Assembly (NCBI GenBank): GCA_963708135.1
Contig: OY970192.1
Coordinates: forward strand, 1,472,001-1,536,000
Origin: an uncultured Gemmatimonadales bacterium
GTDB taxonomy: Bacteria > Gemmatimonadota > Gemmatimonadetes > Longimicrobiales > RSA9
Length of the DNA: 64,000 nt
Reading direction: 5' to 3'
Numbering within the stretch: position 1 is the stretch's first letter; every line of letters starts with the position of its first letter. This document shows positions 18,498 to 35,337 of this stretch, piece by piece. Made by a program: the position numbers and the translations under genes. Below the pieces are notes generated by a model, which saw only the letters and a list, made by a program, of their open reading frames with translations, ran no database searches and had not been told where the DNA came from.

Positions 18498-19040
18498 ATG
18501 AAGCACTTGGCGTTTTTCAGCGCTGTCGTCGTGGTGCTCGCAGGGTGCAGCGGCGGCGCCCAGGAGCCGACGGCGGGCGAGGGCTACCGCGCCCTGGCGG
18601 CGGATCAGGTGATGGAGGGGGTCCATCACTACTTCACCGCGGATGGTGTGCGGCGCGGCGAGCTCACGGCCGACTCGGCCTACATGTACGACGACTCCGC
18701 GCGAGCGGATCTGCGCGGGGTCCACCTGAAGATGTTCGACACGCAGGGGCGGGAGACGGCCACGCTGACCTCGCGCTCCGGCGTCGTCAACAACCGTACG
18801 CAGGCCATGGTGGCGCGCGGGGGCGTCGTGCTGGTCACGACGGAGGGGAACAAGCGGATCGAAACCGAAGAGCTGCACTACGACCCGAACACGCACCGGA
18901 TCTGGAGCACGGTGGCGAGCACGCTCCAGCAGAACGGCACGCGCGTGACCGGGGACGGCTTCACCGCGGACGACCAGATGCACAACCTGCAGATGACGCA
19001 TCCGCGCGGGAAGGTCGAGGGCATGAAGGTGCAGTTCTGA
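18498..19040 (+). CDS. lptC: LPS export protein LptC with lipoprotein signal (alternative starts 18486/18489)
   Basis: Located between kdsD and lptA/lptB; beta-jellyroll-like sequence (LTADSAY, IETEELHYD, VTGDGFTAD); lipobox LAGC. Confidence 0.85.
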   Translation: MKHLAFFSAVVVVLAGCSGGAQEPTAGEGYRALAADQVMEGVHHYFTADGVRRGELTADSAYMYDDSARADLRGVHLKMFDTQGRETATLTSRSGVVNNRTQAMVARGGVVLVTTEGNKRIETEELHYDPNTHRIWSTVASTLQQNGTRVTGDGFTADDQMHNLQMTHPRGKVEGMKVQF

Positions 19041-20845: not shown

Positions 20846-22071
20846 ACGCGACGACGGTGCAGGCCTTCGCGGCAGGGCTCCGCCCGCACGAGAGCTCGGT
20901 GGGCCTGGCTTTGGTGGAGCTGCTGCAGAGGGCGGACGGGCAGGGAGTCGTGGAGCGCGGCTCGTGGCTCGCGGGCGTGCGGAACGCGTTTGCGCGGACG
21001 ACGGCGCAACATGACGGCGGGGAGGGCGAGGGCGAGCTGGTCCACGGCGCGCTCGAGTCGCAGGAGGAGCTGGTGCGCTACCTGGAAGAGCACGTGGTGG
21101 CGAGGCTGGAGGCGCAGCGGATCGCGTCGGCGGAGCCGGCGGGCGAAGGATGGGAGCACGTGCGCTTCGATCCGGAGCTCTGGGCGCAGCTCTTACCGCG
21201 GCGGGAGGCGGTGCTGGAGGAGCTGCAGCAGTCGGTAAGGATCTTGCTTGACGGGCGGGCCTACGGAGCCCCGGCGGCCGAGCGCGCGGCGCCCGCGCTC
21301 GTGGAGGGCGGGAGCACGCTCACGGCGAGCGGCATGGTCAAGGTGTTCCGGAAGCGGAAGGTCGTCAACGACGTGGACGTCCACGTCGCGCAGGGCGAGA
21401 TCGTGGGGCTGCTGGGGCCGAACGGGGCGGGGAAGACGACGACCTTCTACATGATCGTCGGACTCATCACGCCGAATGCGGGCAAGGTCTTCATCGATGA
21501 CGAGGAGCTGACCAGCGTGCCAATGTACCGTCGCGCACGCAAGGGGATCGGCTACCTCGCCCAGGAGCCTTCCGTGTTCCGGCGGCTGACGGTGGAGGAG
21601 AACATCCTCGCGATCCTGGAGACAATGCACCTGTCGCGGGGAGAGCGGAAAGCCCGCCTCGAGGTGCTGCTGGACGAGCTGGGACTGAAGCACCTGCGGA
21701 AGGCGAAGGCGTACTCGCTCTCCGGGGGCGAGCGGCGCCGGCTGGAGATCACGCGGGCGCTGGTGAGCGAGCCGAAGTTCATGCTGCTGGATGAGCCGTT
21801 CGCGGGGGTGGACCCGATCGCGGTGCACGACATCCAGCAGATCGTGGCCGGACTTCGCCACCGCGGCATCGGTGTGATCATCACGGACCACAACGTGGAG
21901 CAGACGCTCGACATCGTGGACCGTGCCTACATCATGTACGACGGCCGGGTCCGCGTGTCGGGGACGGTGGCCGAGCTGGTGTGGAACGACGAGGTGGCCG
22001 AGATCTACTTCGGCCCCACGCTGACCGCTCGCATGCGCGAGCGATACCGTCGACCGGAAGTGGTTGTATGA
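20842..22071 (+). CDS. lptB: LPS export ABC ATPase LptB with ~155-aa N-terminal extension
   Basis: GLLGPNGAGKTTTFYM, GYLAQEPSVFR, LSGGERRR, LLDEPFAGVDP, ITDHNV; ATGA overlap with the upstream gene. Confidence 0.93.
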   Translation: MNATTVQAFAAGLRPHESSVGLALVELLQRADGQGVVERGSWLAGVRNAFARTTAQHDGGEGEGELVHGALESQEELVRYLEEHVVARLEAQRIASAEPAGEGWEHVRFDPELWAQLLPRREAVLEELQQSVRILLDGRAYGAPAAERAAPALVEGGSTLTASGMVKVFRKRKVVNDVDVHVAQGEIVGLLGPNGAGKTTTFYMIVGLITPNAGKVFIDDEELTSVPMYRRARKGIGYLAQEPSVFRRLTVEENILAILETMHLSRGERKARLEVLLDELGLKHLRKAKAYSLSGGERRRLEITRALVSEPKFMLLDEPFAGVDPIAVHDIQQIVAGLRHRGIGVIITDHNVEQTLDIVDRAYIMYDGRVRVSGTVAELVWNDEVAEIYFGPTLTARMRERYRRPEVVV

Positions 22072-23531
22072 GCATACGTACGGGGCTGTTCCAGGGGACA
22101 CAGCTCAGGCAGGAGATGAAGATCAATCCGCGCCTGTACCAGGCGATGGATCTTCTCTACATGCCTCTGCTGGACCTGCAGCAGCACATCAAGCAGGAAA
22201 TGCTGAACAATCCGTTCCTCGACCTCGAGGAGCCGGCGGTCGCGGAGGACGAGGCGACGCTGACGGAGCAGCAGAAGGAGAAGGAGGAGAAGGAGAAGGA
22301 GAAGGACGAGGAGATCGACTGGGAGGAGATCCTCCTGGACGGCTTCGAGGCGGGCGGCCGGCGGCAGGAGTACGAGGAGAAGGAGTACTACGAGCCGGTG
22401 CCGGTGGACACGCAGGACCTCTACGACTATCTGCGCGAGCAGCTCACATTGATGCGGCTCTCGGACCGGCAGATGCTGCTGGGCGACGAGATCATCGGCA
22501 ACATCGACGAGGACGGCTACCTGACCTGCTCGGTGGAGGACGTGGTCACCGGGCTGAACAAGTGGATCGAGAGCGAGGAATCGGGGTGGTCGCCGGGGGA
22601 GATTCCGGCCTACTCGGTGGCGGAAGGGGAGGAGATGCTGCAGGTGGTGCAGGGCTTCGATCCTCCGGGGATCGCCGCGCGGGACCTGCGCGAGTGCCTG
22701 CTGCTGCAGATGCGTGACGAGGGGCTGGAGGACACGCTGGCGTTCCGGATCGTGCGCGAGTACTACGACCAGCTGATCAACCACCGGTGGTCGGAGATCT
22801 CGAAGGAGCTCTCGATCACGCCGAAGGACGTGCAGGCGGCGGCGGACGAGGTGGCGAAGCTGGACCCGAAGCCTGGACTCAAGCACTCCGCGCCGGCCGA
22901 CAACTACGTGATCGCGGACCTGATCGTCGACAAGATCGACGGAGAGTACCTGGTCTTCCTGAACGACACGAGCCTGCCGCGGCTGAAGCTGTCGCGGGCG
23001 TATCGCGAGATCGCGAAGGACAAGAACAAGTTCAAGGGGGAGAACAAGGAGTTCATCTCGAACAAGCTGAACAGCGCGAACTGGATGATCCAGGCGATCG
23101 AGCAGCGGCGCCAGACGATGCTGAAGGTCATGAACTTCATCGTGGACCGGCAGCGCGAGTTCTTCGAGAAGGGCGTGCAGTACCTCAAGCCGCTGACGCT
23201 GCGCGAGGTGGCCGAGGTGATCAACATGCACGAGTCGACCGTCTCGCGGGTGACGAACGAGAAGTTCGTGCAGACGCCCAGGGGTGTGCTGCCGCTCAAG
23301 TTCTTCTTCTCGAGCGGGCTGTCCACGACGTCGGGCGAGGACGTCAGCGCGCGCGGGATCAAGGCGAAGATCCAGAAGCTGGTGGACGAGGAGAACCCGA
23401 AGCGGCCGCTGACGGACCAGGCGATCGTGAACATCCTGAAGGAAGAGGGCATCCAGATCGCCCGCCGCACGGTGGCGAAGTACCGCGACCAGCTGGGCAT
23501 CCTCTCGGCGCGGATGCGCAAGCGGGTGTAG
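22068..23531 (+). CDS. rpoN: RNA polymerase sigma-54 factor
   Basis: PLTLREVAE...HESTVSRV, RpoN box ARRTVAKYR. Confidence 0.98.
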   Translation: MSIRTGLFQGTQLRQEMKINPRLYQAMDLLYMPLLDLQQHIKQEMLNNPFLDLEEPAVAEDEATLTEQQKEKEEKEKEKDEEIDWEEILLDGFEAGGRRQEYEEKEYYEPVPVDTQDLYDYLREQLTLMRLSDRQMLLGDEIIGNIDEDGYLTCSVEDVVTGLNKWIESEESGWSPGEIPAYSVAEGEEMLQVVQGFDPPGIAARDLRECLLLQMRDEGLEDTLAFRIVREYYDQLINHRWSEISKELSITPKDVQAAADEVAKLDPKPGLKHSAPADNYVIADLIVDKIDGEYLVFLNDTSLPRLKLSRAYREIAKDKNKFKGENKEFISNKLNSANWMIQAIEQRRQTMLKVMNFIVDRQREFFEKGVQYLKPLTLREVAEVINMHESTVSRVTNEKFVQTPRGVLPLKFFFSSGLSTTSGEDVSARGIKAKIQKLVDEENPKRPLTDQAIVNILKEEGIQIARRTVAKYRDQLGILSARMRKRV

Positions 23532-23558: not shown

Positions 23559-24545
23559 ATGGCGACGACACCGGTCGAGCAGATGACTGCTTCTCCGCCG
23601 CGCCTCACGGAAGAGGTGCGGCGGGGCTTTGCCGTGCTGGTGCCCGCCTACAACGAGGCGGACAACATGCGTGAGCTCGTGGCGGAGCTGCGGGCCACGT
23701 TCGAGCGTTGGCAGCTCGAGGGCGAGGTGGTGCTGGTGGACGACGGCTCCACGGACGGGACGGCCGAGGCGGCGAGGCGGGAGGCGGCGGGGTGGAGCGG
23801 CTTCAAGGTGGTTTCGCACCGACGCAACTTCGGCAAGACGGAGGCGCTGCTCACGGGCGCGGAGGCGACGGACGCCGGGGTGCTCGTCCTCTTCGACGCG
23901 GATCTGCAGCATGGGACGGAGGAGATCCCACGCTTTCTGGCGCGCGTGGCGGAGGGGTGGGACATCGTGACGGGACGGAAGGTCGGGCGCTACGAGAAGC
24001 GGGGCGTTTCCCGGGTGTACAACTGGCTGAACCGGCGCATCTTCGAGGTGCCGGTCTCGGACCTGAACTCGATGAAGGCGTTCCGGCGCGAGGTGCTGGA
24101 TGAGGTGCACCTGCGCCACGACTGGCACCGCTTCTTCGTGGTGCTGGCTTACGCGCGCGGCTTCAGCGTGACGGAGCTGGACATCGCGCTCCTGCCGCGT
24201 CGCCACGGCGTGGCAAAGTACTCCGCCCGGAGCCGGATCGTGGTGGGTCTGCTGGACCTGGTGTCGGTGGCGTTCTTCCTGTTCTTCTCGCGCAAGCCGA
24301 TGCTGTTCTTTGGCGTGAGCGGGCTCTTCACCGTGGGGCTCGGGCTGGTGGTCGGGGTGACGACGATCGTGCTCCGCGTGCTGCACACCATGCCGCCGTT
24401 CGGCTACCGCCCGCTCCTCTACCTCGTGGTTCTCCTCGAGACGCTCGGCTTCCTGCTCTTCGGCTTTGGCTTCGTGGCCGAGCAGAGCGCCCAGCAGCAG
24501 GCCGAACTGGACGCGCTGCGTACCCGCCTGCTCAAGCGGAAGTAG
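23559..24545 (+). CDS. GT2 glycosyltransferase, ArnC/GtrB-like (polyprenyl-phosphate sugar loader)
   Basis: VPAYNE, DDGSTD, RNFGK, DADLQ, two C-terminal TM helices. Confidence 0.9.
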   Translation: MATTPVEQMTASPPRLTEEVRRGFAVLVPAYNEADNMRELVAELRATFERWQLEGEVVLVDDGSTDGTAEAARREAAGWSGFKVVSHRRNFGKTEALLTGAEATDAGVLVLFDADLQHGTEEIPRFLARVAEGWDIVTGRKVGRYEKRGVSRVYNWLNRRIFEVPVSDLNSMKAFRREVLDEVHLRHDWHRFFVVLAYARGFSVTELDIALLPRRHGVAKYSARSRIVVGLLDLVSVAFFLFFSRKPMLFFGVSGLFTVGLGLVVGVTTIVLRVLHTMPPFGYRPLLYLVVLLETLGFLLFGFGFVAEQSAQQQAELDALRTRLLKRK

Positions 24546-24555
24546 CGCGAGCGCC

Positions 24556-25476
24556 ATGGCCAGCGAGCGACCGCTGTTCCCCGACGGCTACCCCCCGGCC
24601 GAGATCTTCGATCGGCTGGAGGAGGCGGCGCCGCTGCGGGAGATGCAGGGGTTCGCCGACCGCTTCCGCGAGGCGAATCCCGCGGCGCTGGCGCGCTACG
24701 CCCGCCAATGGGTGCCGGATCCGCTGCACCACTGGTCACGCCAATGGGAGTACCCGTACGTCTACGAGCGGCTGCGCGAGGAGCTCGGGGAGCGGTCCGC
24801 CGCGGCCGGCGGCGCGCGAATTCTCGACGCGGGGTCGGGCCTCACCTTTTTCCCGCATTTTCTGGCCGAGCGCCTCCCGCTCGCGCGGGTGGACTGCTGC
24901 GACCGGGATCCGCTCATCGAGGACGACGCCGCCCTGCTCCTGCCGCCGGCGAGCGCCGCCGTCGCCTACTCCACGCAGGACCTGTCGGCGCTCCGGTTCC
25001 CGGACGCGACCTTCGATGCCGTGTACTGCGTGTCCGTGCTGGAGCACAGCGACCGCAGGGAGGCGATCGCGGCGGAGTTCGCGCGCGTGCTGAAGCCGGG
25101 CGGACTGCTGGTGCTGACCATCGATGTGTCGCGGGATGGGCGTGCGGAGATCCCGCCGGAGGAGGCGGCCCGGCTGGTGGCGGAGGTCTCGGCGCGGTTC
25201 GACGCGGCGGGGGAGTACGGGGACGCGGTGCGGGGCGGGGAGCGGGGGGACGTGGCGACGACCGCGCACGCGTACGCGCTCGACCCCACGCTGCTGCCGT
25301 GGACCCCCGCCGGTGGGGAGGTGCTGCGGCGGCTGCTCCGGCCGTGGTCGTTCCCCTGGGTGCGGGCCATCCGGCGCGTGCTGCGCCGGAGCACCGGCGG
25401 GCCGGCGTACCCGGACCTCACGTTCTTCTGCATGGCGTGGCGGCGTGGCGGCGTGGCGGCGGAGGGCGGCGGGTGA
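24556..25476 (+). CDS. Class I SAM-dependent methyltransferase
   Basis: ILDAGSG, FDAVYCVSVLEH, RVLKPGG. Confidence 0.88.
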   Translation: MASERPLFPDGYPPAEIFDRLEEAAPLREMQGFADRFREANPAALARYARQWVPDPLHHWSRQWEYPYVYERLREELGERSAAAGGARILDAGSGLTFFPHFLAERLPLARVDCCDRDPLIEDDAALLLPPASAAVAYSTQDLSALRFPDATFDAVYCVSVLEHSDRREAIAAEFARVLKPGGLLVLTIDVSRDGRAEIPPEEAARLVAEVSARFDAAGEYGDAVRGGERGDVATTAHAYALDPTLLPWTPAGGEVLRRLLRPWSFPWVRAIRRVLRRSTGGPAYPDLTFFCMAWRRGGVAAEGGG

Positions 25477-26639
25477 GCCCGCGCGCGCTGGTGGTGGTCG
25501 GAACCCGGCCGGAGGGGATCAAGCTGGCGCCGGTGGTGCGGGGGCTGGAGGAGCGCGCGGCCGAGATCGAGACGCGGGTCGCGCTGACGGGGCAGCACAG
25601 CGAGCTGCTGGACCAGGTGCTGGACGTGTTCGGGGTCGCCGCGGCGTGGGACCTGGAGATCATGCGGGAGGGGCAGGACCTCTACGACGTGGCCCACCGC
25701 TGCCTGGACGGTCTCCGCGCAGTGGTGGCGGAATGGGCGCCGGACATCGTCCTCGTGCAGGGCGACACGGCGACGGTGTTCTTCGGGGCGCTCGTCGCCT
25801 TCTTCGAGAAGACGCGGGTGGGGCACGTGGAGGCGGGCCTGCGCAGCCGGGACAAGTGGCGGCCGTTCCCGGAGGAGATGCTCCGGCGCATGACGGGTGT
25901 GCTGGCGGACCTGCACTTCGCGCCGACCGCCGAGGCGCGCGAGAACCTGCTGGCGGAGGGCGTTCCGGGATCGTCGGTGTTCCTGACGGGCAACACCGTC
26001 GTGGACGCGCTCCAGGAGGTGGCCGGCGCGGCGGGAGCGCCCGTGGACGCGGAGCTCGGGCGCGCGCTCGAGGAGGGGGGCCGGGTGGTGCTGGTCACCG
26101 CGCACCGGCGCGAGTCGTTCGGCGCGCCGCTGCGGGAGGCGTTCGGCGCGATCCGGGAGGCGGCGGACCGCTTCCCGGACACGGTGTTCGTCTACCCCGT
26201 GCACCCGAATCCGGCCGTGCGCCGCGCGGCTTCCGAGGTGCTCTCCGGCCATCCGCGGATCCGTCTGACGGAGCCGCTCGCCTACAGGGACCTCGTGATC
26301 GCGCTGCGCAGCGCCGCGCTGGTGCTCACCGACTCGGGCGGGATCCAGGAGGAGGCGCCGAGCTTCGGCGTCCCGGTCCTCGTGCTGCGCGAGGTGACGG
26401 AGCGGCCCGAGGCGGTGCGCGCGGGGGCGGCCCGGCTGGTGGGCACGGATCGGGCGGCGATCCTCGCCGGGGTGGAGGCGGCGCTCGCGCCGGACGGCGC
26501 ATGGGCCCGTCAGCGGATCGTGAATCCCTACGGCGATGGCGCCGCCGGCCGGCGGATCGCGGACATCGTGGTGCACGCGCTGACGGGCGCGCCGCGGCGG
26601 ACGGAAGACTGGACGGGCCCGGAGGGTGCGCGGCCGTGA
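25473..26639 (+). CDS. wecB: UDP-N-acetylglucosamine 2-epimerase (non-hydrolysing)
   Basis: GTRPEGIK, TGQH, VQGDT, HVEAGLRS, TAHRRES, DSGGIQEEAP, NPYGDG. Confidence 0.95.
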   Translation: MSPRALVVVGTRPEGIKLAPVVRGLEERAAEIETRVALTGQHSELLDQVLDVFGVAAAWDLEIMREGQDLYDVAHRCLDGLRAVVAEWAPDIVLVQGDTATVFFGALVAFFEKTRVGHVEAGLRSRDKWRPFPEEMLRRMTGVLADLHFAPTAEARENLLAEGVPGSSVFLTGNTVVDALQEVAGAAGAPVDAELGRALEEGGRVVLVTAHRRESFGAPLREAFGAIREAADRFPDTVFVYPVHPNPAVRRAASEVLSGHPRIRLTEPLAYRDLVIALRSAALVLTDSGGIQEEAPSFGVPVLVLREVTERPEAVRAGAARLVGTDRAAILAGVEAALAPDGAWARQRIVNPYGDGAAGRRIADIVVHALTGAPRRTEDWTGPEGARP

Positions 26640-27757
26640 ACGTCCTGCAGCAGTGCATCTACTTCCCGCCGGAGGTAGGCGGCCTCGAGAGCCACGCCTA
26701 CTATCTGTGCCGGGAGCTCGTGCGACAGGGCGACGCGGTGACCATGCTGACGTCGCGCTCGATGCCGGGGACGCCCGCGGCGGAAGTGATGGACGGCGTG
26801 CGCGTGCGGCGGATGTGGTTCCCGGGGAAGAGCCCGGCGGGGTGGGTGCTGCACACGCTCTGGACGGTTCCGGCCTATCAGCGGCTGGCGGGGTGGGCGG
26901 ACGTGCTGCACGCGCAGACCTTCGCCTCCGCGGTGCCGGCACTCGTGGCCCGGCGACGACTCGGGAAGCCGGTGGTGCTGACGCTGCATACGTCGCATTT
27001 TCTCCGGCTGGCGAAGAGGCCGATGTGGCGGCCGGTCCTGGCGCGGATCATCCGCGGCGCGGATTGGCTCCTGGCGGCGAGCGAGGAAATCCGGGACGTG
27101 GCGCTGGACCTCTATCCGCATGCGCGGGCGGAAGCGCTGACGAACGGGGTGGATACGTCGGTGTTCCGGCCGGTCGAGCCGGCGTTGCGGCGGGAGGGTG
27201 GGCGGGCGCGGATCATCGTGCCGCGCCGGCTGTACCCGAAGAACGGCGTGGAGTCGCTGGTGCGGGCGGTGCCGCTGCTCGCGGCGCGACTGGACGTGGA
27301 GGCGGTGATCGTCGGGGACGGCCCGGAGCGAAGCCGGCTGGAAGCGCTCGCGCGCGAGCTGGGCGTGGAGGCGCGGATCCGCTTCCTGGGCGCGCGGCCG
27401 AACACGGAGCTGCCGGGGCTCCTCTGCTCGGGAGACGCGGCCGTGATCCCGTCGCTCATGGAGGCGACCAGCGTCGCGGCGCTCGAGGCAATGAGCTGCG
27501 AGCGGCCCGTGGCGGCATCGGCGGTGGGCGGGCTGCCCGAGATCGTGGATGAGGCGGTCGGGACGCTGTTCCGGCCGGCGGATCCGGCGGACCTGGCCGA
27601 GCGCGTGGCGGCGCTGCTCGCGGCGCCCGACCGGGCGGAGCGCGGGCGGGAGGCGCGGCGCCGGGTGGTGGAGCGCTGGAGCGTGGCGCGGCTGGCACGC
27701 CGGCACAGGGAGATCTACAGGACGCTGCTGGAGGAAAAGGCGGAGGCGCGGACGTGA
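26636..27757 (+). CDS. GT4 (GT-B) glycosyltransferase
   Basis: YFPPEVGG, TNGVD, VGDGPE, E-x7-E motif (EATSVAALEAM), VGGLPEIV. Confidence 0.92.
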   Translation: MNVLQQCIYFPPEVGGLESHAYYLCRELVRQGDAVTMLTSRSMPGTPAAEVMDGVRVRRMWFPGKSPAGWVLHTLWTVPAYQRLAGWADVLHAQTFASAVPALVARRRLGKPVVLTLHTSHFLRLAKRPMWRPVLARIIRGADWLLAASEEIRDVALDLYPHARAEALTNGVDTSVFRPVEPALRREGGRARIIVPRRLYPKNGVESLVRAVPLLAARLDVEAVIVGDGPERSRLEALARELGVEARIRFLGARPNTELPGLLCSGDAAVIPSLMEATSVAALEAMSCERPVAASAVGGLPEIVDEAVGTLFRPADPADLAERVAALLAAPDRAERGREARRRVVERWSVARLARRHREIYRTLLEEKAEART

Positions 27758-30228
27758 CGAGGAGGCCGAAACGTGGGGCGGGCGGGCGGAGCACGCCGGC
27801 GAGCGCGCGGGGCGCGGAGGCGGAGCGGCCGCTGCCGGCGTGGCTGCCGCTCGTGGTATACGCGCTGCTGGTGGTCGTGCTGTTCCGCGCGTTCGTCTTC
27901 TCGGACCAGATGCTGTTCGGGACGGACACGCTCGCGCTGGGCTACTTCGCGCGCGACTTCTACCGGAACTTCGTCCTCTCGCTGCACCACTTCCCGCTCT
28001 GGGATCCCTACCTGTTCGGCGGGCTTCCATTCGTGGACGGGATGCACGGCGACATCTTCTATCCCACGACCGTGCTGCTCTTCCTGATGAAGACATCGCG
28101 GGCGCTGGGGTGGCGGCTCATCGTGCACATCTTCCTGGCCGGGATCTTCACCTACGGCTGGTTGCGCCAGATCGGGGCGAGGCGGGCGGGGGCGTTCTTC
28201 GCCGGCCTGGTCTACATGCTGGGCGCGCACCTGGTCAGCCTGATCTACCCGGGCGGCGACGGCAAGATCTTCAACGCCACGCTCATGCCCCTGCTGTTCT
28301 GGCTCACGGAGCGCGCGGCGGCGCGCCGCCGCTACGCGGACTTCGTGTTCCTGGCGCTCGGCGTGTCGCTCATGATCTACACGTCGCACATGCAGGTGGC
28401 GTACTTCGCCATCTGGGGGTTCTCGCTCTACTTCATCTTCCGGCTCGGGCAGATGTGGCGCGCGCAGCGCAGCCCACGCTCCGCGGCGCGGCTGCTTGCG
28501 CTCTTCGCGCTCTCCGGGCTGGTGGGCGCGGCGGCGTCGGCGGTGCAGCTCGTGCCACCGTACGTGTACCTGAACAGGAGCTCGCACCGCGCGGAAAAGA
28601 CGGTCGAGGCCGGCGCGACGCGCGGCTACGAGTACTCGACCTCCTGGTCGCTGCATCCGGAGGAGGCCGTCTCTCTCGTGGTGCCGGAGTTCGCCGGGAC
28701 GAGCGTCTCTACGCCCTCCTCACCCGAGAACACCTACTGGGGCCGCAACGCGTTCAAGCTGAACGCCGAGTACGCCGGCTTCATCCCGCTGCTGCTGATC
28801 CCGTTCGTGTTCTTCCGGCGCCGGCGCAGGGGCCGCGCCTGGTTCTTCATCGGCCTCGGCGTGCTCGCGCTCCTCTACGCGCTCGGAGACACGACGCCGT
28901 TCTTCCATCTGTTCTACGCGCTGGTCCCGGGGGTGAAGCTGTTCCGCGCGCCCTCCACGATCATCCCGCTCTACGCGCTGATGGTGGCCACGCTGGGCGG
29001 CCTCGGCCTCGACGCGCTGCTCGAGCGGGGCGGGGAGGAGGCGGCCGGCCGGGAGGGGACGGGCGGAACGGGAAGCCGCTATCTCTGGATCGCCGCGGGC
29101 GTGCTCCTCGTTCTCGCGCTGCTGTCCTCGGGCGATACCCTCGCGAAGGTCTGGATCGCGGCGTTCTACCGCGACATTCCGCCCGACAAGCTGCAGGCGC
29201 TGGAGGCGAACCTCCCGTCGATGCGGGCGGGCTTCTGGATCACGTTCGTCCTCGCCGCGGCGGTGGCCGGGGTGTGGGAGGCGATGCGGCGCGGGATGCT
29301 CGGGCGGCGGGCGGCGTTCGGGGTGATCGCGGTGCTGGGGCTGCTCGACGTATGGCGGGTGGACCCGCAGTTCATCGAGGTGATGGACCCGCAGCCGGTG
29401 TTCGGAGCGGACGACGTCGTCGCGTTCCTGAAGCAGCAGCAGACGAAGGGCGAGGTCTTCCGGGTGCTCGATGCGGGCGCGTACAGCCAGACGCCGGACT
29501 ACCTGGCCGACTACGGCATCGAGCAGATGGCCGGGCACCACGGCAACGAGATGGCCCGCTACCGGGACCTGATCGGCGGCACCGAGCTGCGCAACGTCTC
29601 CGCCTCCGGGCTGCGGCTGCTCAACCTGCTGAACGTTGCCTACCTGGTCGCGCCGCAGGAGGCGCGGCTGCCGCCCGGCTATACGGAGGCGTACAAGGGA
29701 AGCCGCGGGGCGGTGGTGTACCGCAACGACAACGCGCTGCCGCGAGCGTTCCTGGTGGACGCGACGCGCGTGGTGCCGGACTCGCAGGCGGTGGCGCGGC
29801 TGATCTCGGCCGACTTCGACTTCCGACGGGTGGCGCTGCTGCCGGCGCCGCCGCCGGCGGAGGTCTCGCTGCCGGCCGGGGCCCCGGCCGGCGGGCTGGT
29901 CGGAACGACGCACTGGCGGGCCCACGGCGTGAACGAGCAGACGGTCGAGGTGAGCGCCACGCGGCCGGCGCTGCTCGTGGTCACGGACAACTGGTACGAT
30001 GCCTGGCGGGCGACGGTGGACGGCGCACCCGCGCCCGTGCTCCGCGCAGATTACAGCTTCCGAGGGATCCCGGTTCCCGCGGGCGCGCACGTCGTCACGC
30101 TGCGCTACGTCTCGCCGATGCTCGTCGATGCGGCGTGGGTCTCGGTGCTGGTGCTGGCGGTGCTGGCGGTGCTGGCCGTGTGGAGCTGGCTGCGGCCGAC
30201 CGGCTGGCTGGCGCGGGAGCGGCCGTGA
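27754..30228 (+). CDS. YfhO-like polytopic membrane glycosyltransferase (GT-C)
   Basis: PLWDPYLFGGLPF, FYP, many TM helices, FRAP motif, C-terminal ALPRAF...LLVVTDNWYDAWRATVDG...VPAGAHVVTLRY; 824 aa. Confidence 0.85.
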   Translation: MTRRPKRGAGGRSTPASARGAEAERPLPAWLPLVVYALLVVVLFRAFVFSDQMLFGTDTLALGYFARDFYRNFVLSLHHFPLWDPYLFGGLPFVDGMHGDIFYPTTVLLFLMKTSRALGWRLIVHIFLAGIFTYGWLRQIGARRAGAFFAGLVYMLGAHLVSLIYPGGDGKIFNATLMPLLFWLTERAAARRRYADFVFLALGVSLMIYTSHMQVAYFAIWGFSLYFIFRLGQMWRAQRSPRSAARLLALFALSGLVGAAASAVQLVPPYVYLNRSSHRAEKTVEAGATRGYEYSTSWSLHPEEAVSLVVPEFAGTSVSTPSSPENTYWGRNAFKLNAEYAGFIPLLLIPFVFFRRRRRGRAWFFIGLGVLALLYALGDTTPFFHLFYALVPGVKLFRAPSTIIPLYALMVATLGGLGLDALLERGGEEAAGREGTGGTGSRYLWIAAGVLLVLALLSSGDTLAKVWIAAFYRDIPPDKLQALEANLPSMRAGFWITFVLAAAVAGVWEAMRRGMLGRRAAFGVIAVLGLLDVWRVDPQFIEVMDPQPVFGADDVVAFLKQQQTKGEVFRVLDAGAYSQTPDYLADYGIEQMAGHHGNEMARYRDLIGGTELRNVSASGLRLLNLLNVAYLVAPQEARLPPGYTEAYKGSRGAVVYRNDNALPRAFLVDATRVVPDSQAVARLISADFDFRRVALLPAPPPAEVSLPAGAPAGGLVGTTHWRAHGVNEQTVEVSATRPALLVVTDNWYDAWRATVDGAPAPVLRADYSFRGIPVPAGAHVVTLRYVSPMLVDAAWVSVLVLAVLAVLAVWSWLRPTGWLARERP

Positions 30229-30944
30229 TGGAGAAGGCGCCGCTCACCGCCTACGATGTGCGGGATGAATACGACGAGGCGTACTACCGGCGCCTGTCGG
30301 AGAGCTACGAGAGCGAGAACCGCTTCTCGCGCCAGCGGATCCGCAACGTGCTCTCGCTGCTGCCGGAGCTGCGGGACAGGCGCCTGCTCGACATGGGTTG
30401 CGGGATGGGCACGTTCACGCTGGAGGCGGCCGAGCGAGGCGCGTGGACGCTCGGCCTCGACTTCACCGCGGCCGCGGTGCGGGAGGGGAAGCGGATCGGA
30501 GAGTCGCACGGGGTCGCCGGCGCCCGGTTCGTGCAGGGAGACGCGGCCGCGCTTCCGCTCCGCGATGGGAGCCTGGACGCGGTTGTGGCCGCGGACTTCA
30601 CGGAACACCTGGACGACGAGAGCCTGCGCCGGATCCTTGCCGAGACGGCGCGGGTGCTCGCGCCGGGCGGCACGCTCGTGCTCTACACCCCTTCGCCGTC
30701 CCACCTGCTCGAGCGGCTGCGCGAGCACCGGCTACTCCTGCAGCCCTACGGCTCCCACATCGGGATGCGGTCCGCGGCGGTGCTGGCGCGGGAGGTCGAG
30801 CGGGCGGGATTCTCGGTGCGCCGCGTCGCCTTCCTGCCGTCCCACCTCCCGGGGCTGAACCAGGTGGAGCGCCTCCTCGCCCGGTGGGTGCCGCTCCTGC
30901 GGCGCAGGATCGGCCTCGTGGCCAGCAAGCCGGGGCGACGTTGA
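30228..30944 (+). CDS. Class I SAM-dependent methyltransferase
   Basis: LLDMGCGMG, GDAAALP, EHL, RVLAPGG. Confidence 0.9.
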   Translation: MEKAPLTAYDVRDEYDEAYYRRLSESYESENRFSRQRIRNVLSLLPELRDRRLLDMGCGMGTFTLEAAERGAWTLGLDFTAAAVREGKRIGESHGVAGARFVQGDAAALPLRDGSLDAVVAADFTEHLDDESLRRILAETARVLAPGGTLVLYTPSPSHLLERLREHRLLLQPYGSHIGMRSAAVLAREVERAGFSVRRVAFLPSHLPGLNQVERLLARWVPLLRRRIGLVASKPGRR

Positions 30945-32155
30945 GGCCGGCGGGGCGCTGGCTGCTGCGGGCGGTCCAGCTCGCCGCGGTCGTGGTGCTG
31001 GGGTGGGCGCTATGGCGCCGCCTCGCGCCCGAGCTGGCGCAGCTGAAGCCCGAAGACCTCACCCGCTGGCGCCCGGCGATGCTGCCGCTGCTCCTCTCGT
31101 TCGGCCTGCTCGTGGTGGTCTACCTGCTGAACGCCTTTCTCTGGCGGCGGATCCTGCGCGACATCTCGGGCCGGGAAGCGAGCCCGCGGGCCACCGTGAA
31201 GATCTATTTCCTCTCGGGCCTCGGTCGCTACGTGCCCGGCAAAGTCTGGCTGGTGGCCAGCATGGTGTATCTGGCCGGAAAGGAAGACGTTCCGCCTCTG
31301 GCCGCCACGGCGTCGGCGGTGCTGGGGCAGATCGGCTTTCTCACCACGGGGCTGCTGTTCCTCGCCCTCACCTTGCCCAGCTACGGGGGCCTCGGCTCGG
31401 CGATCCTGGCCGCGCTCGCCGCCCTCGCCGCCCTCGTCGCGGGGATCTTCTTCCTCAGCGCGAGCGGGCCGGGCGCCCGGCTGCGCCACCTCGTGGCGCA
31501 CCACGTGGGCGAGAGGGCGGCGCGCGCCTTCGAGATCTTCGACCGGATCCGGCCCCGGACCGCGCTCGTATGGGGGCTCGGCTACCTGCTGGCCTGGGCG
31601 CTCCTGGGCCTCGCCTTCGCCACGTTCGTGGCCGCCTTCGTGCCCGTCACCACACGGGAGCTCCGCCTGCTCGGCGGCACGGTCGCCGCCTCCTACCTGG
31701 CCGGCTACCTCTTCCTCGTGGCGCCGGCCGGGATCGGCGTCCGCGAGGGGGTGATGACGGCGCTGCTGAGCGGCGTCATGCCCGCGCCGGCCGCGCTCGT
31801 CGTCGCCGTCGTCTCGCGCATCTGGTTCACCGCGGCGGAGATCCTGCCGCTGGCGCTGCTGCCGGTACTCCCGGCGGCCCGCGGTCGGGGTGGGGACGGA
31901 GATGGCGGGCCCGGTGACGGGGGCCAGGAGCCATGGCAGCCGCCGACTTCGGAAGCGGAGGGCCGCGCACCGGATGCCGCCGGTGCGCGGCGCGGTCCGG
32001 TCGTGCCGCGCGACCCGGTGGACCGGAATGGCGCCAATGATCCGCGGGAGTCCGGCGCGCCGGAGCGCACAGGGGGCTCCGGGGACGGAGCAACCAGGCG
32101 CGACGGGGCCGCGGTCCGGACCGGACGTGGGTGGCCGGAAGGGAGGGAGGCGTGA
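30941..32155 (+). CDS. Flippase-like membrane protein (lysylphosphatidylglycerol-synthase TM/UPF0104 type) with a disordered C-terminal tail
   Basis: GRYVPGKVW and APAGIGVREG motifs; ~8 hydrophobic helices; TTG start overlaps the upstream stop. Confidence 0.8.
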   Translation: MRPAGRWLLRAVQLAAVVVLGWALWRRLAPELAQLKPEDLTRWRPAMLPLLLSFGLLVVVYLLNAFLWRRILRDISGREASPRATVKIYFLSGLGRYVPGKVWLVASMVYLAGKEDVPPLAATASAVLGQIGFLTTGLLFLALTLPSYGGLGSAILAALAALAALVAGIFFLSASGPGARLRHLVAHHVGERAARAFEIFDRIRPRTALVWGLGYLLAWALLGLAFATFVAAFVPVTTRELRLLGGTVAASYLAGYLFLVAPAGIGVREGVMTALLSGVMPAPAALVVAVVSRIWFTAAEILPLALLPVLPAARGRGGDGDGGPGDGGQEPWQPPTSEAEGRAPDAAGARRGPVVPRDPVDRNGANDPRESGAPERTGGSGDGATRRDGAAVRTGRGWPEGREA

Positions 32156-32889
32156 GCGGAGGAGGGGCGGGGCAGCGGGCGCTGGTGATCATCCCGACCT
32201 ACAACGAGAGTCAGAACCTGCCGCGCCTCCTGCCGATGGTGCTGGAGCAGGATCCACGTCTCGAAGTGCTGGTCATCGATGACGCCTCGCCCGACGGGAC
32301 GGGGGCGGTAGCGGACGAGCTGGCGTCGGCCGATCCTAGAATTCACATCATCCATCGGGCTGGAAAGCTAGGTCTTGGAACCGCTTACATTTCCGGGTTC
32401 AAGTGGGGACTGGAGCGCGGCTACGACCTGCTGCTGGAGATGGACGCCGACTTCTCACACGATCCGGGACACCTGCCGCAGTTTCTGGAGGCGGCGCACG
32501 ACTACGACGTGGTGCTGGGCTCGCGCTACCTGGACGGGCGCGTGACGGTGATCAACTGGCCAATGGGGCGGCTGCTGCTCTCCTATTTCGCGAACCACTA
32601 CGCCCGCCTCGTCACCGGGCTGCCGGTGGCGGATGCGACGGGCGGCTACAAGTGCTTCCGGCAGACGGTGCTGGAGTCGATCGACCTGGACGTGGTGGAA
32701 TCGGAGGGCTACGCCTTCCAGATCGAGATGAGCTTCCGTGCGTGGAAGCGCGGCTTCCGGCTGGGCGAGATTCCGATCGTGTTCGTGGACCGGACGCTGG
32801 GCGAGTCGAAGATGTCGAAGCGGATCGTGCGGGAGGCGGTCTGGAAGGTCTGGAAGCTGCGCTGGCTGGATCTGGTCGGTCGCTTGTAA
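32152..32889 (+). CDS. Polyprenol monophosphomannose synthase (Ppm1/Dpm1-like GT2)
   Basis: IIPTYNE, DDASPDGT, GKLGLGTAY, EMDADFSH, DATGGYKC, GYAFQIE, FVDRTLGESKMS. Confidence 0.9.
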   Translation: MSGGGAGQRALVIIPTYNESQNLPRLLPMVLEQDPRLEVLVIDDASPDGTGAVADELASADPRIHIIHRAGKLGLGTAYISGFKWGLERGYDLLLEMDADFSHDPGHLPQFLEAAHDYDVVLGSRYLDGRVTVINWPMGRLLLSYFANHYARLVTGLPVADATGGYKCFRQTVLESIDLDVVESEGYAFQIEMSFRAWKRGFRLGEIPIVFVDRTLGESKMSKRIVREAVWKVWKLRWLDLVGRL

Positions 32890-32902: not shown

Positions 32903-33544
32903 ATGGCGATACACGATCTCCTCTGGGCCTGTCCGGCGTGCGGGACCGAGGGCGGGCTGCGGCCGTGGCGGGGTGGCGAGACCTGCACGGCCTGCGGGAG
33001 GCGCTACCGACAGCTCGGCGGAGGGCGCATCGTTGCCGAGGGAGCGGGGGAGCCCGAGGTCACGCGCGAGGCGGGGGAGTGGGCCGCGCGGCTTCCGGAG
33101 GTGCGTGGCGTCCCCGCCGGCGAGGCGATGGAGGCGGCGGTGCAGCTGCGGCGTGCCGTGGGTGACCAGGTGGTAAAGGTGGCGGGGGAGTACCTCGGCC
33201 GGGTGGAGCGGTTCGGCCCACCCGTGCCCGGGACGCTCCGCCTGACGGCCGATGCGCTCGGATTCATGCCGGAGAGTGGAGGGGAAGAGCTTGCCTGGGG
33301 ACTCGAGGAGCTGACGGCGGTGCAGCTCAGCTCGGGCAGCCTCCAGCTAAAGTTCCGCAGGAAGCCGCTGGCCTCGTTCCGCTTCCGCGACAGCTCGCCA
33401 CGCCTCTGGGAGGCACGCCTCGGGGCCACGCTCCGCGCGCTCTATGCCCGGAGAGGCTGGGGAGAAGTCCGCGAGATGCAGCCACGGATCGCGGTGCGGC
33501 CCGGCTCCGCCACGCCAGGGCCGGAGAGCGCGGGGGACGCGTGA
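32903..33544 (+). CDS. Hypothetical protein: N-terminal Zn ribbon plus PH-like beta domain
   Basis: LWACPACG...CTACG; GTLRLTADALGF; overlaps the plsC start (GTGA). Confidence 0.7.
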   Translation: MAIHDLLWACPACGTEGGLRPWRGGETCTACGRRYRQLGGGRIVAEGAGEPEVTREAGEWAARLPEVRGVPAGEAMEAAVQLRRAVGDQVVKVAGEYLGRVERFGPPVPGTLRLTADALGFMPESGGEELAWGLEELTAVQLSSGSLQLKFRRKPLASFRFRDSSPRLWEARLGATLRALYARRGWGEVREMQPRIAVRPGSATPGPESAGDA

Positions 33545-34188
33545 TCTACCGACTCGCGCAGTGGCTGGCCCGTACGCTCTGGCACCTCCTGGGCCGGGTC
33601 GAGGTGCGCGGGCTGGGGAACGTACCGCCGGACGGGCCGTTCCTGCTCGTCGCCAACCACCTGAGCATCCTCGACCCCATCCTCGTCCAGTCGATGCTGC
33701 CGCGTCCACTCCACACGATGGCCAAGAGCACACAGTTCACGGCGCCGCTCGTCGGCTGGCTGATGGCCACGCACCTGCGTTCCTTCCCGGTGCGCCGCTA
33801 CGAGATCGACCCACAGGCCGTGCGTCTCGTACTGCGGCGCCTGCAGGAAGGAAAGGGCGTCGGCATCTTCATCGAGGGCGAGCGAAGCTGGGACGGACGG
33901 CTCCAGGAGCCGCGCCTCGGCACGCTCCGGCTGCTCCTCAAGGCCGGCGTGCCCGTCATCCCGTGCGGCGTCCACGGAACCTATGGTGTTTGGCCGCGCT
34001 GGGGCCGCCCGAGGCGCTCCCACGTCCGGATCACCTTCGGTGAGCCGCTCCGATTCCCGAAGCTCGACCGCCGGGACGAGCGCGAGGCGCTCCTGGACGA
34101 GACCGGCGAGCGCCTCATGGCCGCGATCCGGGCCTCGATCAACGGTGCCGAGCGCGCCGAGCGGGCTCAGTCGCGGCGCCGCCGGTGA
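33541..34188 (+). CDS. plsC: 1-acyl-sn-glycerol-3-phosphate acyltransferase family
   Basis: NHLSILD (HX4D), FIEGERS, VPVIP, VRITFGEP. Confidence 0.88.
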   Translation: MIYRLAQWLARTLWHLLGRVEVRGLGNVPPDGPFLLVANHLSILDPILVQSMLPRPLHTMAKSTQFTAPLVGWLMATHLRSFPVRRYEIDPQAVRLVLRRLQEGKGVGIFIEGERSWDGRLQEPRLGTLRLLLKAGVPVIPCGVHGTYGVWPRWGRPRRSHVRITFGEPLRFPKLDRRDEREALLDETGERLMAAIRASINGAERAERAQSRRRR

Positions 34189-34335
34189 CGAGATCCTTCC
34201 ATTTTGGGCGCCGATGCCCGATTGTCATGGCATGAGGACGATCCGCTATCTGGGCGTGCGCTGGCGGCCGGGCAGGGCGGCGGCGTGGGCCGCGGTGGAG
34301 AAGTCGTGGAGTTCTCCACAGCTTTCGCGTCCTCA

Positions 34336-34363
34336 GGTTTACATAATGTATATTATGCGAAGC
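34336..34363. other. dif: dif site (XerC/XerD chromosome dimer resolution site)
   Basis: GGTTTACATAA-TGTATA-TTATGCGAAGC: 11-6-11 architecture with the CATAA-N6-TTATG core of E. coli dif (GGTGCGCATAATGTATATTATGTTAAAT); intergenic AT-rich island; gene strand and KOPS polarity switch nearby. Confidence 0.9.
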
Positions 34364-34413
34364 GGACCCGCGGCCACGGCGGCCACCACCACGACGAGTC
34401 TCGAGAGGCAGAC

Positions 34414-35337
34414 ATGCCCCAGACCATCTGGAACGGAAGCCTCCGTTTCGGGCTGATCGAAATACCGGTCAACCTTTTCGCGGCGGAGCGGCCGGCGGCG
34501 GGCCTGCCGATCCAGATGCTGGATGGGCGGGACATGGAGCCGGTGGCATACCGGCGCGTGAACCGGCGGACGGGCGAAGTAGTGCCGTGGGAGGCGGTGG
34601 TTCGCGGATACGAATACGAGGCGGGCCGCTACGTCGTGGTCACGGACGAGGACCTCGAGCGGGCGGATCCGGAGGCGACGCGGGCGATGGAGCTCGTCGC
34701 GTTCGTCGAGCCGGAGGCGATCGAGCCTCCCTACTACGACACCCCGTACTACCTCGTTCCGAGCGAGGCCGAGGCCGCGAGCGGGTATGCCCTGCTGCGG
34801 GAGGCGCTGCGGCGGAGCGGCAAGGTTGGGATCGCGAAGCTGGTGCTGCGGACGCGGCAGCATCTGGCGGCTGTGCTCGTCCGGGGCTCCGTTCTGGTGC
34901 TGGAGCTGCTGCGCTACGCGGCGGAGGTTCGCGAGGCGCGGCTGCCGGGTGTGCCGGGTGAGGATCTCGAGAGTTTGGGTCTGACGCCGGCGGAGGTGGA
35001 GCTGGCGGGGCTGCTCGTGGAACGCATGACGGAGTCGTGGGACCCGGGCGCGTACCGGGACGACTACCGGGACGAGGTACTGGCGGCGCTCTCGAGCAAG
35101 GCGACCGGCGCGCGTCAGGTGCCGGCCCAGGAGCTCCCGCTTGCCGCGACGGCTGCCGCCGTGGGTTCGGCGGCGAACGGGGGCTCGGCCGAGGCCGCGG
35201 AGACGCCGCCTGTGGGGGTGGTGGACCGGATCGGATTGCTGGAGCAGAGCCTCGAGCGGGCGGTCGCGGGCGAGCGGCGTCCGGCCCGGCGGGGCCGCCG
35301 GGCGCTGGGCGAGGTGGCGGCGCGCAGGCCGGCCTGA
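34414..35337 (+). CDS. ku: Non-homologous end-joining protein Ku
   Basis: IWNGSLRFGLIEIPVNL, RGYEY, PYYLVP, YALLREAL, YRDDY, basic C-terminal tail. Confidence 0.95.
   Translation: MPQTIWNGSLRFGLIEIPVNLFAAERPAAGLPIQMLDGRDMEPVAYRRVNRRTGEVVPWEAVVRGYEYEAGRYVVVTDEDLERADPEATRAMELVAFVEPEAIEPPYYDTPYYLVPSEAEAASGYALLREALRRSGKVGIAKLVLRTRQHLAAVLVRGSVLVLELLRYAAEVREARLPGVPGEDLESLGLTPAEVELAGLLVERMTESWDPGAYRDDYRDEVLAALSSKATGARQVPAQELPLAATAAAVGSAANGGSAEAAETPPVGVVDRIGLLEQSLERAVAGERRPARRGRRALGEVAARRPA

Follow-up and report, generated by a model that had tools for sequence, protein, structure and literature searches.

We describe an operon of eight co-directional, plus-strand genes (gA to gH, positions 23559-32889) in a 64,000-nucleotide stretch of contig OY970192.1 from an uncultured Gemmatimonadales bacterium (hereafter the window), and propose that it encodes a lipid-carrier-dependent glycosylation system acting outside the cytoplasm. 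Three of its products, the Dpm1-like synthase gH, the putative flippase gG and the YfhO-like GT-C glycosyltransferase gE, would form a three-component scheme of loader, flippase-like membrane protein and transferase, a reading that we regard as likely. That the acceptor is in addition protein, which would make the operon a Gemmatimonadota counterpart of the general O-glycosylation system of Bacteroidota, is advanced tentatively, as a possibility somewhat short of probable.

In the proposed mechanism gH would charge polyprenol phosphate with a hexose (most likely mannose) at the inner membrane face, gG, as the membrane partner of gH, would flip the loaded lipid, and gE would pass the sugar to a periplasmic acceptor by means of Asp58, a conserved residue of its first periplasmic loop. 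This acceptor would most likely be the Ser or Thr of D-(S/T)-(A/I/L/V/M/T) sequons in exported proteins, for example those of the (ARDSTGA)7 stretch in an LptA-like protein encoded 5' of the operon. A second lipid-linked sugar might be supplied by gA, the PMT_2-type GT-C that adjoins gA in relatives being missing from the window. A protein acceptor is our best guess because of the sequon signature in exported proteins, the precedent of streptococcal systems, a donor enzyme resembling dolichol-phosphate mannose synthase (DPMS) that suits the mannose-first glycan of Bacteroidota, and homology of gE to Bacteroidota YfhO. An original prediction, made from the letters of the window, had likewise read these genes as synthase, flippase and GT-C, and this fits our results, in which gH resembles a solved DPMS (5mlz), gG resembles MprF membrane domains, gE is predicted to adopt a GT-C fold, and the trio is linked across phyla.

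Predicted folds and families of the core proteins

Because the window has a GC content of 72%, genes were called from third-position GC (GC3 frame analysis), and families were assigned by Pfam and NCBIfam scans. The gene gE (27754-30228; protein P0001) encodes an 824-residue protein of the YfhO family, which scored 32.1 bits against PF09586 (YfhO; cut-off 28.5) in a match confined to its C-terminal 44 residues (748-791); a YfhO protein of Flavobacteriaceae (P0474) likewise matched at its C-terminus only (36.7 bits). A sequence search of the PDB with gE gave nothing credible (best E 0.075, to designed helical proteins), and Pfam gave no match of gE to PMT (PF02366), PMT_2 or MIR at E<=0.01. The AlphaFold2 (AF2) model of gE (pLDDT 92.9, pTM 0.93) has a helical membrane domain up to residue ~540, then a beta-rich domain (~570-785), and closes with a helix at 788-813. 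Foldseek comparison of this model with the PDB returned 32 matches with E<=1e-3, all of them GT-C enzymes, including AftD (7e-8), STT3A (9e-7), AglB (8e-6), ArnT (1e-5) and PglB (4e-5), along with Emb and AftA, and ArnT stood at the top of the fold matches by TM-score per target (0.55). Matches to Pmt4 (E 1e-2) and Pmt1-Pmt2 (E 6.8e-2) were weaker. From the model we are confident that gE has a GT-C fold, with a membrane domain and a periplasmic domain. The structural expectation for this protein was thus borne out as to its fold, but PMT was not singled out among the GT-C enzymes, and the fold ranks therefore indicate neither PMT nor any particular acceptor for gE. Membership of gE in the PMT or ArnT families was considered and set aside in view of the Pfam results and the fold ranks.

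Position D58 of gE is Asp in 75 of 76 aligned relatives (alignment A1) and in all 19 members of the Flavobacteriaceae clade. In the AF2 model it follows the first transmembrane helix (31-43) and stands at the start of helix 57-77, where it may act as the catalytic Asp of what would be the first periplasmic loop. Other invariant or nearly invariant residues of the family are W83, G90, P92, H212, Q214, R279, R570 and W751. The local context of D58 is T-D-T-L (residues 57-59 at 27922-27930), itself readable as a D-T-L sequon. The family is large: at E<=1e-3 it counts 40,796 cluster representatives, of which 2,222 remain at E<=1e-30. By hhalign residues 133-273 of gE are related to the PMT_2-type neighbours found in other loci (probability 94.8, E 4.9e-8). 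Fusions also occur: among P0172, P0175, P0177, P0192, P0197 and P0219 are proteins of 1209-1289 residues that consist of an N-terminal PMT_2-type GT-C and a YfhO-like protein, and in P0480 and P0491 (1368-1399 residues) a YfhO-family protein carries a C-terminal Wzx-type (Polysacc_synt/MurJ-like) flippase.

The relation of gE to YfhO of Bacteroidota was addressed by profile comparison and by a tree. The gE family profile (A1) aligned end to end with P0474, annotated as a YfhO family protein of a Flavobacteriaceae bacterium, over 730 columns at 19% identity (hhalign probability 100, E 1.2e-55), and the 19-member P0474 clade keeps D58 and the other invariant residues. P0474 was found among relatives of a distant KSB1-like query; a Zixibacteria-like query gave no Bacteroidota ortholog. 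In an unrooted FastTree phylogeny of 81 sequences and 777 columns, the sampling of which was driven by these two queries, the window clade (42 sequences, support 0.78) and the Flavobacteriaceae/Kapabacteria clade (19 sequences, support 0.998) fall together on the same side of a split supported at 0.98; the 20 sequences on the other side include Ignavibacteria, Omnitrophica, Candidate Phyla Radiation and one Lokiarchaeial sequence. Orthology of gE and Bacteroidota YfhO appears plausible, and only that, because the tree is unrooted, its sampling query-driven and a single sequence of the sister clade named as Bacteroidota.

The proposed loader, gH (32131-32889), is a soluble DPMS/Dpm1-like glycosyltransferase of family GT2 (PF00535, E 4.5e-32) in which no membrane helix was predicted. 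Its best PDB sequence match is the dolichol-phosphate mannose synthase of P. furiosus (5mlz, E 1.9e-28, catalytic domain only), which makes gH a candidate polyprenol-phosphate hexose synthase, the hexose probably being mannose. The preceding gene, gG (30941-32155), encodes a stand-alone PF03706 (LPG_synthase_TM) protein (56.7 bits, cut-off 33.4) for which neither a credible PDB sequence match nor an NCBIfam match was found. Its AF2 model (pLDDT 80.7) ends in a disordered tail of ~100 residues. The six top Foldseek matches of this model were all MprF (probability 1.00, TM 0.43-0.55), with 7duw the best of them (TMq 0.55, root-mean-square deviation 3.9 Å, E 8.7e-3); their E-values were 8e-3 or worse, none of the fold matches reaching 1e-3, and all non-MprF matches had probabilities below 0.2. 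On this model gG resembles a stand-alone membrane (lipid flippase) domain of MprF and may itself be a flippase. No GtrA-like family was present in any window protein scanned, and the GtrA/GtcA role of the three-component scheme would here be filled by gG. Hopanoid-associated genes of the HpnB/HpnL type were also considered and rejected, the similarity to HpnB being weak (E 1e-10, far below the cut-off) and gG having no NCBIfam match.

The original prediction called the first gene, gA (23559-24545), simply a GT2. The GT2 domain is indeed there (PF00535, E 2.5e-25), but the description was incomplete: three C-terminal hydrophobic helices follow at residues 225-307, and over its full length gA matches ArnC (9bhc, E 4.9e-27, the best PDB sequence match) and GtrB (5ekp, E 2.9e-14). 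Its best NCBIfam models, ArnC, PgfS and PpgS, all scored below cut-off (102.9 bits against 529 for ArnC). By sequence, gA is of the membrane-anchored, ArnC/GtrB-like polyprenyl-phosphate glycosyltransferase type.

Gene neighborhood in the window and in related loci

To see which genes travel with gE we used a one-genome-per-species scan, queried with a closer 30-sequence alignment (A2), that yielded 520 confirmed gE relatives from 571 candidates. The best 80 loci were kept, comprising 55 Gemmatimonadota-like loci and 25 from other phyla (Zixibacteria, Ignavibacteria, one Terriglobales, UBP14, or no name). Window proteins were mapped to six-frame open reading frames, and only loci with enough flanking DNA were counted. 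A gH ortholog lies directly downstream of gE, within 2.5 kb, in 47 of 49 loci (33/33 in Gemmatimonadota and 14/16 in other phyla), gG is within that distance of gE in 38 of 43 (28/29 and 10/14), and gA in 44 of 51 (32/35 and 12/16). From these neighbor counts across phyla the conserved core is gA ... gG - gE - gH. Of the 33 gH orthologs aligned, 30 are 59-83% identical to the window copy, and those of L045, L046 and L079 (such handles denote single loci of the set) are 44% identical.

The remaining genes of the operon are less widely kept. Linkage to the GT4 gene gD (26636-27757; Glycos_transf_1 E 3.7e-32, Glyco_transf_4 E 9.1e-26, no NCBIfam cut-off reached) was seen in 43/46 Gemmatimonadota and 11/21 other loci, with the GT4 proteins of Zixibacteria-like loci 23-28% identical to gD, and linkage to the wecB gene gC (25473-26639), a non-hydrolysing UDP-N-acetylglucosamine (UDP-GlcNAc) 2-epimerase (TIGR00236, 418.8 bits, cut-off 210), in 38/40 and 4/18. 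Of the two class-I S-adenosylmethionine methyltransferases, gF (30225-30944; Methyltransf_25, E 6.6e-21) is found in 14/36 and 0/19, and gB (24556-25476, with an uncertain start that may also be 24466; Methyltransf_11, E 9.9e-16) has an ortholog in L041 alone among the 80 loci. The products of gB, gD and gF were predicted to have neither signal peptide nor membrane helix, and their action should therefore be confined to cytoplasmic or lipid-linked precursors. WecB, the GT4 and both methyltransferases are lineage-variable cytoplasmic accessories that are not conserved with the core, and the proposal that the additional glycosyltransferases and the methyltransferases lengthen or cap a glycan already bound to protein is left without support.

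Linkage to the upstream kds-lpt-rpoN genes is a Gemmatimonadota feature: rpoN is near gE in 33/35 Gemmatimonadota loci and 0/16 others, and lptB in 32/34 and 1/15, the single case being a 28% ABC match. Outside Gemmatimonadota the Pfam array reads GT2 (gA-like) - GT4 - PF03706 - YfhO-like - GT2 (gH-like) - GT2 - WecA/MraY-family - accA - EIIA(Ntr) - mreC. A rhamnosyltransferase-like GT2, a WecA/MraY-family gene, accA, the ptsN-like EIIA(Ntr) gene and mreC follow the cluster in L036, L039, L053 and L079 (at ~13000-17600) and in L081 (24718-27070). In E. coli rpoN is followed by ptsN, and in Gemmatimonadota the cluster lies 3' of rpoN; these arrangements may reflect an ancient association of the cluster with the rpoN-ptsN operon. 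The combination of a PF03706 protein, a soluble GT2 and a GT-C recurs, since L036 carries a second set in tandem upstream (1529-6291) that consists of a TIGR00374 PF03706 protein (above cut-off), a methyltransferase, a soluble AglJ/PpgS-like GT2 and a PMT_2 GT-C. PMT_2-type GT-Cs adjoin gA orthologs in L036, L062 and L033, and some Gemmatimonadota loci (L018 examined, 6154-7752) have a 532-residue, multi-helix, GT-C-like but Pfam-negative protein between gA and wecB, at the position of gB.

Within the window the operon begins 27 bp after the end of rpoN (22068-23531), and five of its junctions (gB/gC, gC/gD, gD/gE, gE/gF and gF/gG) are 4-bp overlaps; the eight closely spaced or overlapping genes that had been noticed directly after rpoN are confirmed by GC3 frames and family scans. 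On the 5' side lie, in order, kdsB (13533-14291, plus strand), pyrG, kdsA, kdsC, kdsD, lptC, the LptA-like gene, lptB and rpoN. The lptB product (20842-22071; 409 residues) has an N-terminal extension of ~165 residues ahead of its ABC domain (Pfam match from residue 175), which is conserved in that Gemmatimonadota orthologs cover 93-100% of lptB. On the 3' side the operon runs on with the co-directional genes gI (32906-33544), a zinc-ribbon protein without Pfam or NCBIfam family, and gJ (33541-34188), a PlsC-type acyltransferase (PF01553, E 6.5e-26). It is uncertain whether gI and gJ belong to the glycosylation system; gJ was near gE in 11/23 Gemmatimonadota and 0/15 other loci. The gI protein (212 residues) has an N-terminal CxxC...CxxC zinc ribbon and its gene overlaps gJ by 4 bp, and the pair recurs in Longimicrobiales-like loci. 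Directly 3' (34285-37910) are genes for Ku and a three-domain LigD (phosphoesterase, ligase, primase-polymerase), and the same pair is found 3' of the cluster in L005, L017, L028, L029 and L041.

As originally noted, Wzx, Wzy and WaaL appear to be lacking: no Pfam match to Wzx (Polysacc_synt), Wzy or WaaL (Wzy_C) was obtained among the 55 window proteins scanned. A scan of the operon for internal promoters and terminators gave none that was convincing, and an Rfam scan of the window yielded no match at the gathering score. An ARAGORN call of a 91-nt tRNA-Glu on the minus strand (62849-62939) falls inside a coding frame (62777-63607) and is probably false. A 126-residue protein of the Anabaena sensory rhodopsin transducer family (PF07100, E 1.8e-55) is encoded at 58419-58799, and there is no rhodopsin gene in the window.

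As to the host, the closest relatives of gE (84%, 80%, then at most 57% identity) are in records named Gemmatimonadota or Longimicrobiales, as are most of the 80 related loci. Together with the 72% GC of the window, this makes the earlier framing of the DNA in terms of Bacteroidota wrong. Gemmatimonadota and Bacteroidota both belong to the FCB group.

Sequon enrichment in exported proteins

Counts of D-[ST]-[AILVMT] were compared with those in within-protein shuffles. The nine exported proteins of the window contain 60 sites against 14.5 expected (z 13.7), or 40 against 11.7 (z 8.9) with the LptA-like protein set aside, and its 36 cytoplasmic proteins contain 21 against 23.9. Neither the reverse motif (8 against 14.2 in exported proteins) nor E-[ST]-hydrophobic (6 against 10.9) is in excess. 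In the exported proteins other than the LptA-like one, Asp is the most enriched residue at position -1 (3.3-fold, then Phe at 1.9-fold and Leu at 1.5-fold), and at position +1 A, I, L, V and M are 3-6-fold over-represented and G, P, R, K and D under-represented. The exported proteins of this host show the motif otherwise described in Bacteroidota, equally asymmetric and equally limited to proteins outside the cytoplasm. By protein, the counts are 20 sites against 2.5 expected (z 11.7) in the LptA-like protein, 10 against 1.4 (z 7.6) in a 592-residue protein (48463-50241) that begins with a signal-like segment and matches no Pfam or NCBIfam family, 9 against 1.8 in TamA, 6 against 2.3 in a pyrroloquinoline quinone (PQQ) propeller protein and 6 against 3.4 in TamB.

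Because the exported proteins had been sorted by hand after the per-protein counts were seen, we recounted with an automatic signal-peptide rule. This rule is crude, in that it put FabF and KdsA among the exported proteins and TamA, the PQQ protein and a 512-residue signal-peptide protein among the membrane proteins; such mis-sorting would dilute the signal and not create it. In the window the rule gave 39 sites against 11.3 in 8 exported proteins and 17 against 20.9 in 29 cytoplasmic ones. Across the Gemmatimonadota loci it gave 323 against 80 in 63 exported proteins (reverse motif 70) and 282 against 236 in 294 cytoplasmic proteins (reverse 336), and in the other phyla 117 against 52.6 in 41 exported proteins (reverse 47) and 75 against 81 in cytoplasmic ones. 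The region around lptA-rpoN of E. coli K-12, used as a control, showed no enrichment (9 against 11.9 in 10 exported and 17 against 17.9 in 19 cytoplasmic proteins). Among the other phyla the motif is enriched in L070 (34 against 7.1, in a dockerin protein), L051, L054 and L055.

The densest motif clusters are found in disordered linkers of LptA-like proteins. In the window this protein (19040-20845, plus strand), which would be a candidate acceptor and lies outside the machinery itself, has 601 residues, a signal peptide and an LptA/LptD_N match, and is about three times as long as E. coli LptA. The repeat peptide that had been picked out from the sequence is real: the linker of the protein contains (ARDSTGA)7, the product of a 21-bp tandem repeat (19538-19686) with 7.1 copies and 97% matches. 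Orthologs that we examined have unrelated, lineage-specific linkers or tails, all made of D-S/T-hydrophobic units, such as DTAvva repeats (L030), DSLaaDSLaaDSLaagDTA (L067) and DSAtaaaDSLsgaaaDTAaaDTA (L018). That unrelated linkers are all built from one motif argues that the motif itself is under selection. The step from this signature to gE as the enzyme that makes use of it is one that we infer.

Alternative acceptors and relation to known systems

A number of results weigh against a protein O-glycosyltransferase fed with mannose, and no result ties gE directly to a protein acceptor. The modelled fold of gE is no nearer to PMT than to other GT-Cs, and as to sugar specificity, none of gA, gD, gE, gG and gH met an NCBIfam equivalog cut-off. 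In the unrooted YfhO tree only one sequence of the sister clade is named Bacteroidota. The hand sorting of exported proteins may have introduced bias. By family, the signal in the window and the Gemmatimonadota loci comes mainly from LptA-like proteins (347 against 56), LptC (47 against 21) and TamA-like proteins (16 against 4.5), only 3 of 16 'exported' families being enriched at least 2-fold, and four clear periplasmic enzymes of L032 have 4 sites in 1766 residues. The expected co-occurrence of this YfhO clade with sequon enrichment held for the window and its Gemmatimonadota relatives, with E. coli negative, but not for the Zixibacteria-like L033/L036/L039 clade, which has the whole cluster but in whose 7 exported proteins 4 sites were counted where 8.8 were expected. 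Small as the samples are, this speaks against a strict one-to-one tie of the YfhO clade to the sequon.

Were the acceptor lipopolysaccharide (LPS), gA and/or gH would make undecaprenyl-phosphate sugars and gE would add them to lipid A or to the Kdo/heptose core in the manner of ArnC/ArnT, the sequon signature being due to an enzyme encoded elsewhere. LPS genes indeed flank the operon on both sides in Gemmatimonadota: it follows kdsB-pyrG-kdsACD-lptC-lptA-lptB-rpoN, a linkage that as noted is kept in nearly all loci of this phylum, and genes resembling GmhB and the HldE kinase lie just 3' of gH in L018 (14155-15703). The nearest solved relative of gA is moreover a lipid A modification enzyme, ArnC, and ArnT is a good fold match of gE with the highest TM-score per target. 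We nevertheless consider LPS modification unlikely, since outside Gemmatimonadota the core genes are not beside rpoN and beside an lptB-like gene only once, and Pfam does not assign gE to PMT_2, the ArnT family. We know of no YfhO-family enzyme that modifies LPS, and the characterized ones, in the accounts available, act on teichoic acids or proteins. Another envelope glycoconjugate, such as a lipoglycan, periplasmic glycan or exopolysaccharide, might instead be the product, the GT4 and WecB for example making a glycolipid or lipid-linked oligosaccharide that gG flips and gE polymerizes, ligates or mannosylates. In keeping with this, 43/46 Gemmatimonadota loci and 11/21 others have a GT4 between gA and gG, this GT4 is weakly similar in NCBIfam to enzymes of its family that act on lipids or small molecules, among them BshA and GlcNAc-phosphatidylglycerol synthase, the MprF membrane domain flips a modified phospholipid according to PDB entry titles, a PlsC-type acyltransferase is encoded downstream, a WecA/MraY-family primer enzyme and further GT2s occur in other-phyla loci, and Wzx-YfhO fusions exist (P0480, P0491). 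Such a product would leave the sequon signature unexplained and its enzyme still to be found, however; wecB is outside the conserved core (4/18 beyond Gemmatimonadota), the GT4 of Zixibacteria-like loci is the divergent one noted above, and no polymerase, chain-length or export genes were found among the window proteins scanned, so that this too seems improbable.

The third alternative keeps the protein acceptor and changes the donor. Here gE would transfer en bloc a lipid-pyrophosphate-linked core oligosaccharide, built in the cytoplasm by GT4 and GT2 enzymes and flipped by gG, and gH and gA would provide only later periplasmic decorations. The WecA/MraY-family gene and rhamnosyltransferase-like GT2 of the other-phyla clusters fit this route and a single-sugar route equally well, and this too weighs against our proposal; the Wzx-YfhO fusions are in line with en bloc transfer, as is the rank of the oligosaccharyltransferases STT3, AglB and PglB among the best fold matches of gE. 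The model set out in the available part of a 2025 review of Bacteroidota O-glycosylation (PMC12871550) is of this kind, with a core glycan assembled on undecaprenyl phosphate, flipped and transferred by an oligosaccharyltransferase (OTase), but the same source gives mannose as the reducing-end sugar. The strictly conserved neighbor of gE, moreover, is a DPMS-like monosaccharide loader, and no primer phosphoglycosyltransferase was found among the window proteins scanned. WecA-family enzymes do not, to our knowledge, install mannose, and YfhO enzymes as described in the accounts available use lipid-monophosphate monosaccharides. Transfer en bloc is to our mind quite unlikely. We consider it doubtful, though worth stating, that sequon O-glycosylation is an ancestral trait of a wider group comprising Bacteroidota, Gemmatimonadota and some Zixibacteria-like bacteria, and that it would be initiated by the DPMS-like, MprF-like and YfhO trio through a PMT-like transfer of single mannose residues from polyprenol-phosphate-mannose and not en bloc.

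That YfhO may be a transferase of Bacteroidota is not new, since a July 2026 preprint, in the part available, predicts it in silico to be the OTase of that phylum (10.64898/2026.07.27.740950). The same part reports that Porphyromonas gingivalis, some Alistipes and endosymbionts lack YfhO, and that Bacteroides yfhO lies beside sahH or luxS and not beside a DPMS-like or PF03706 gene. P. gingivalis is listed in the available part of a 2024 Prevotella paper among species with a characterized O-glycoproteome; YfhO is therefore not the sole such transferase, a further point against our reading. The 2025 review, so far as available, gives D-S/T-A/I/L/V/M/T as the Bacteroidota sequon and mannose-rhamnose-glucuronic acid as the reducing end, remarks on a likeness to eukaryotic O-mannosylation, and states that the core-glycan flippase, oligosaccharyltransferase and ligase 'remain undiscovered' (PMC12871550). 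Our literature search found no paper that combines Gemmatimonadota and O-glycosylation. What our data add is the sequon signature in exported proteins of a Gemmatimonadota genome and its relatives, beyond Bacteroidota, and a YfhO-family GT-C genetically tied across several phyla to a DPMS-like synthase and an MprF-like membrane protein, which together make a three-gene hypothesis with an acceptor peptide encoded next door. If true, it would name missing enzymes, favor a mannose-first, PMT-like mechanism and give a function to stand-alone PF03706 proteins; were the acceptor LPS or a glycolipid, this would still be the first role proposed for YfhO-type enzymes in diderms outside Bacteroidota.

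Among known systems, YfhO-family GT-Cs act with CsbB/GtlA and GtcA in the glycosylation of teichoic acids in Bacillus subtilis and Listeria, according to the accounts available. CsbB/GtlA, GtcA and YfhO/GtlB share with the present operon a GT2 undecaprenyl-phosphate loader, a membrane flippase or candidate for it and an extracytoplasmic YfhO-family GT-C, and gE passes the Pfam YfhO cut-off. Unlike them, the host here is a diderm without teichoic acid, the GT2 synthase strictly linked to gE is soluble and DPMS-like, gE comes from a divergent clade and matches Pfam in its last part only, and the flippase candidate belongs to PF03706. As a GtrA-type flippase is missing and an MprF-domain-like protein is present instead, the operon would be a variant, and not a member, of the Gtr/CsbB-GtcA-YfhO type. 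In streptococci the YfhO-family enzymes PgtC2 (with GtrB) and PgfM1 (with PgfS) attach O-glycans to extracytoplasmic proteins in their disordered, Ser/Thr-rich regions (PMC12041528, available in part). The likeness here is that of a YfhO-family GT-C and a GT2 that would act on disordered segments of envelope-biogenesis proteins, our densest motifs being in LptA-like linkers, and PgfS is the second-best NCBIfam model of gA and PgfM1 the only NCBIfam match of gE, both far below cut-off. As far as the streptococcal account goes, the targets there are poly-Ser/Thr without a sequon and not a D-S/T-hydrophobic motif; phylum and envelope differ as well.

The Ppm1-Pmt system of Actinobacteria, like eukaryotic Dpm1-PMT, also has a DPMS-type synthase that feeds a GT-C mannosylating Ser/Thr of secreted proteins, but gE is not a GT39 PMT, lacking PF02366 and MIR matches and matching Pmt4 and Pmt1-Pmt2 only weakly in fold, and the membrane partner is PF03706-like. 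The membrane domain of mycobacterial Ppm1 is Lnt-like. ArnC-ArnE/F-ArnT resembles the operon in its GT2 loader and GT-C, in the similarity of gA to ArnC above all and in an LPS gene neighborhood; it differs in that ArnT/PMT_2, ArnA/B/D and ArnE/F have no counterparts in the window and in that gA scores far below the ArnC cut-off. From the general O-glycosylation of Bacteroidota the present case is set apart by phylum and by distinct YfhO clades at 19% identity, and no Wzx-containing outer-glycan (LFG-like) locus was recognized within the 64-kb window. The two share the same motif with its asymmetry and non-cytoplasmic restriction, and gE is a full-length homologue of Flavobacteriaceae YfhO with the same invariant residues.

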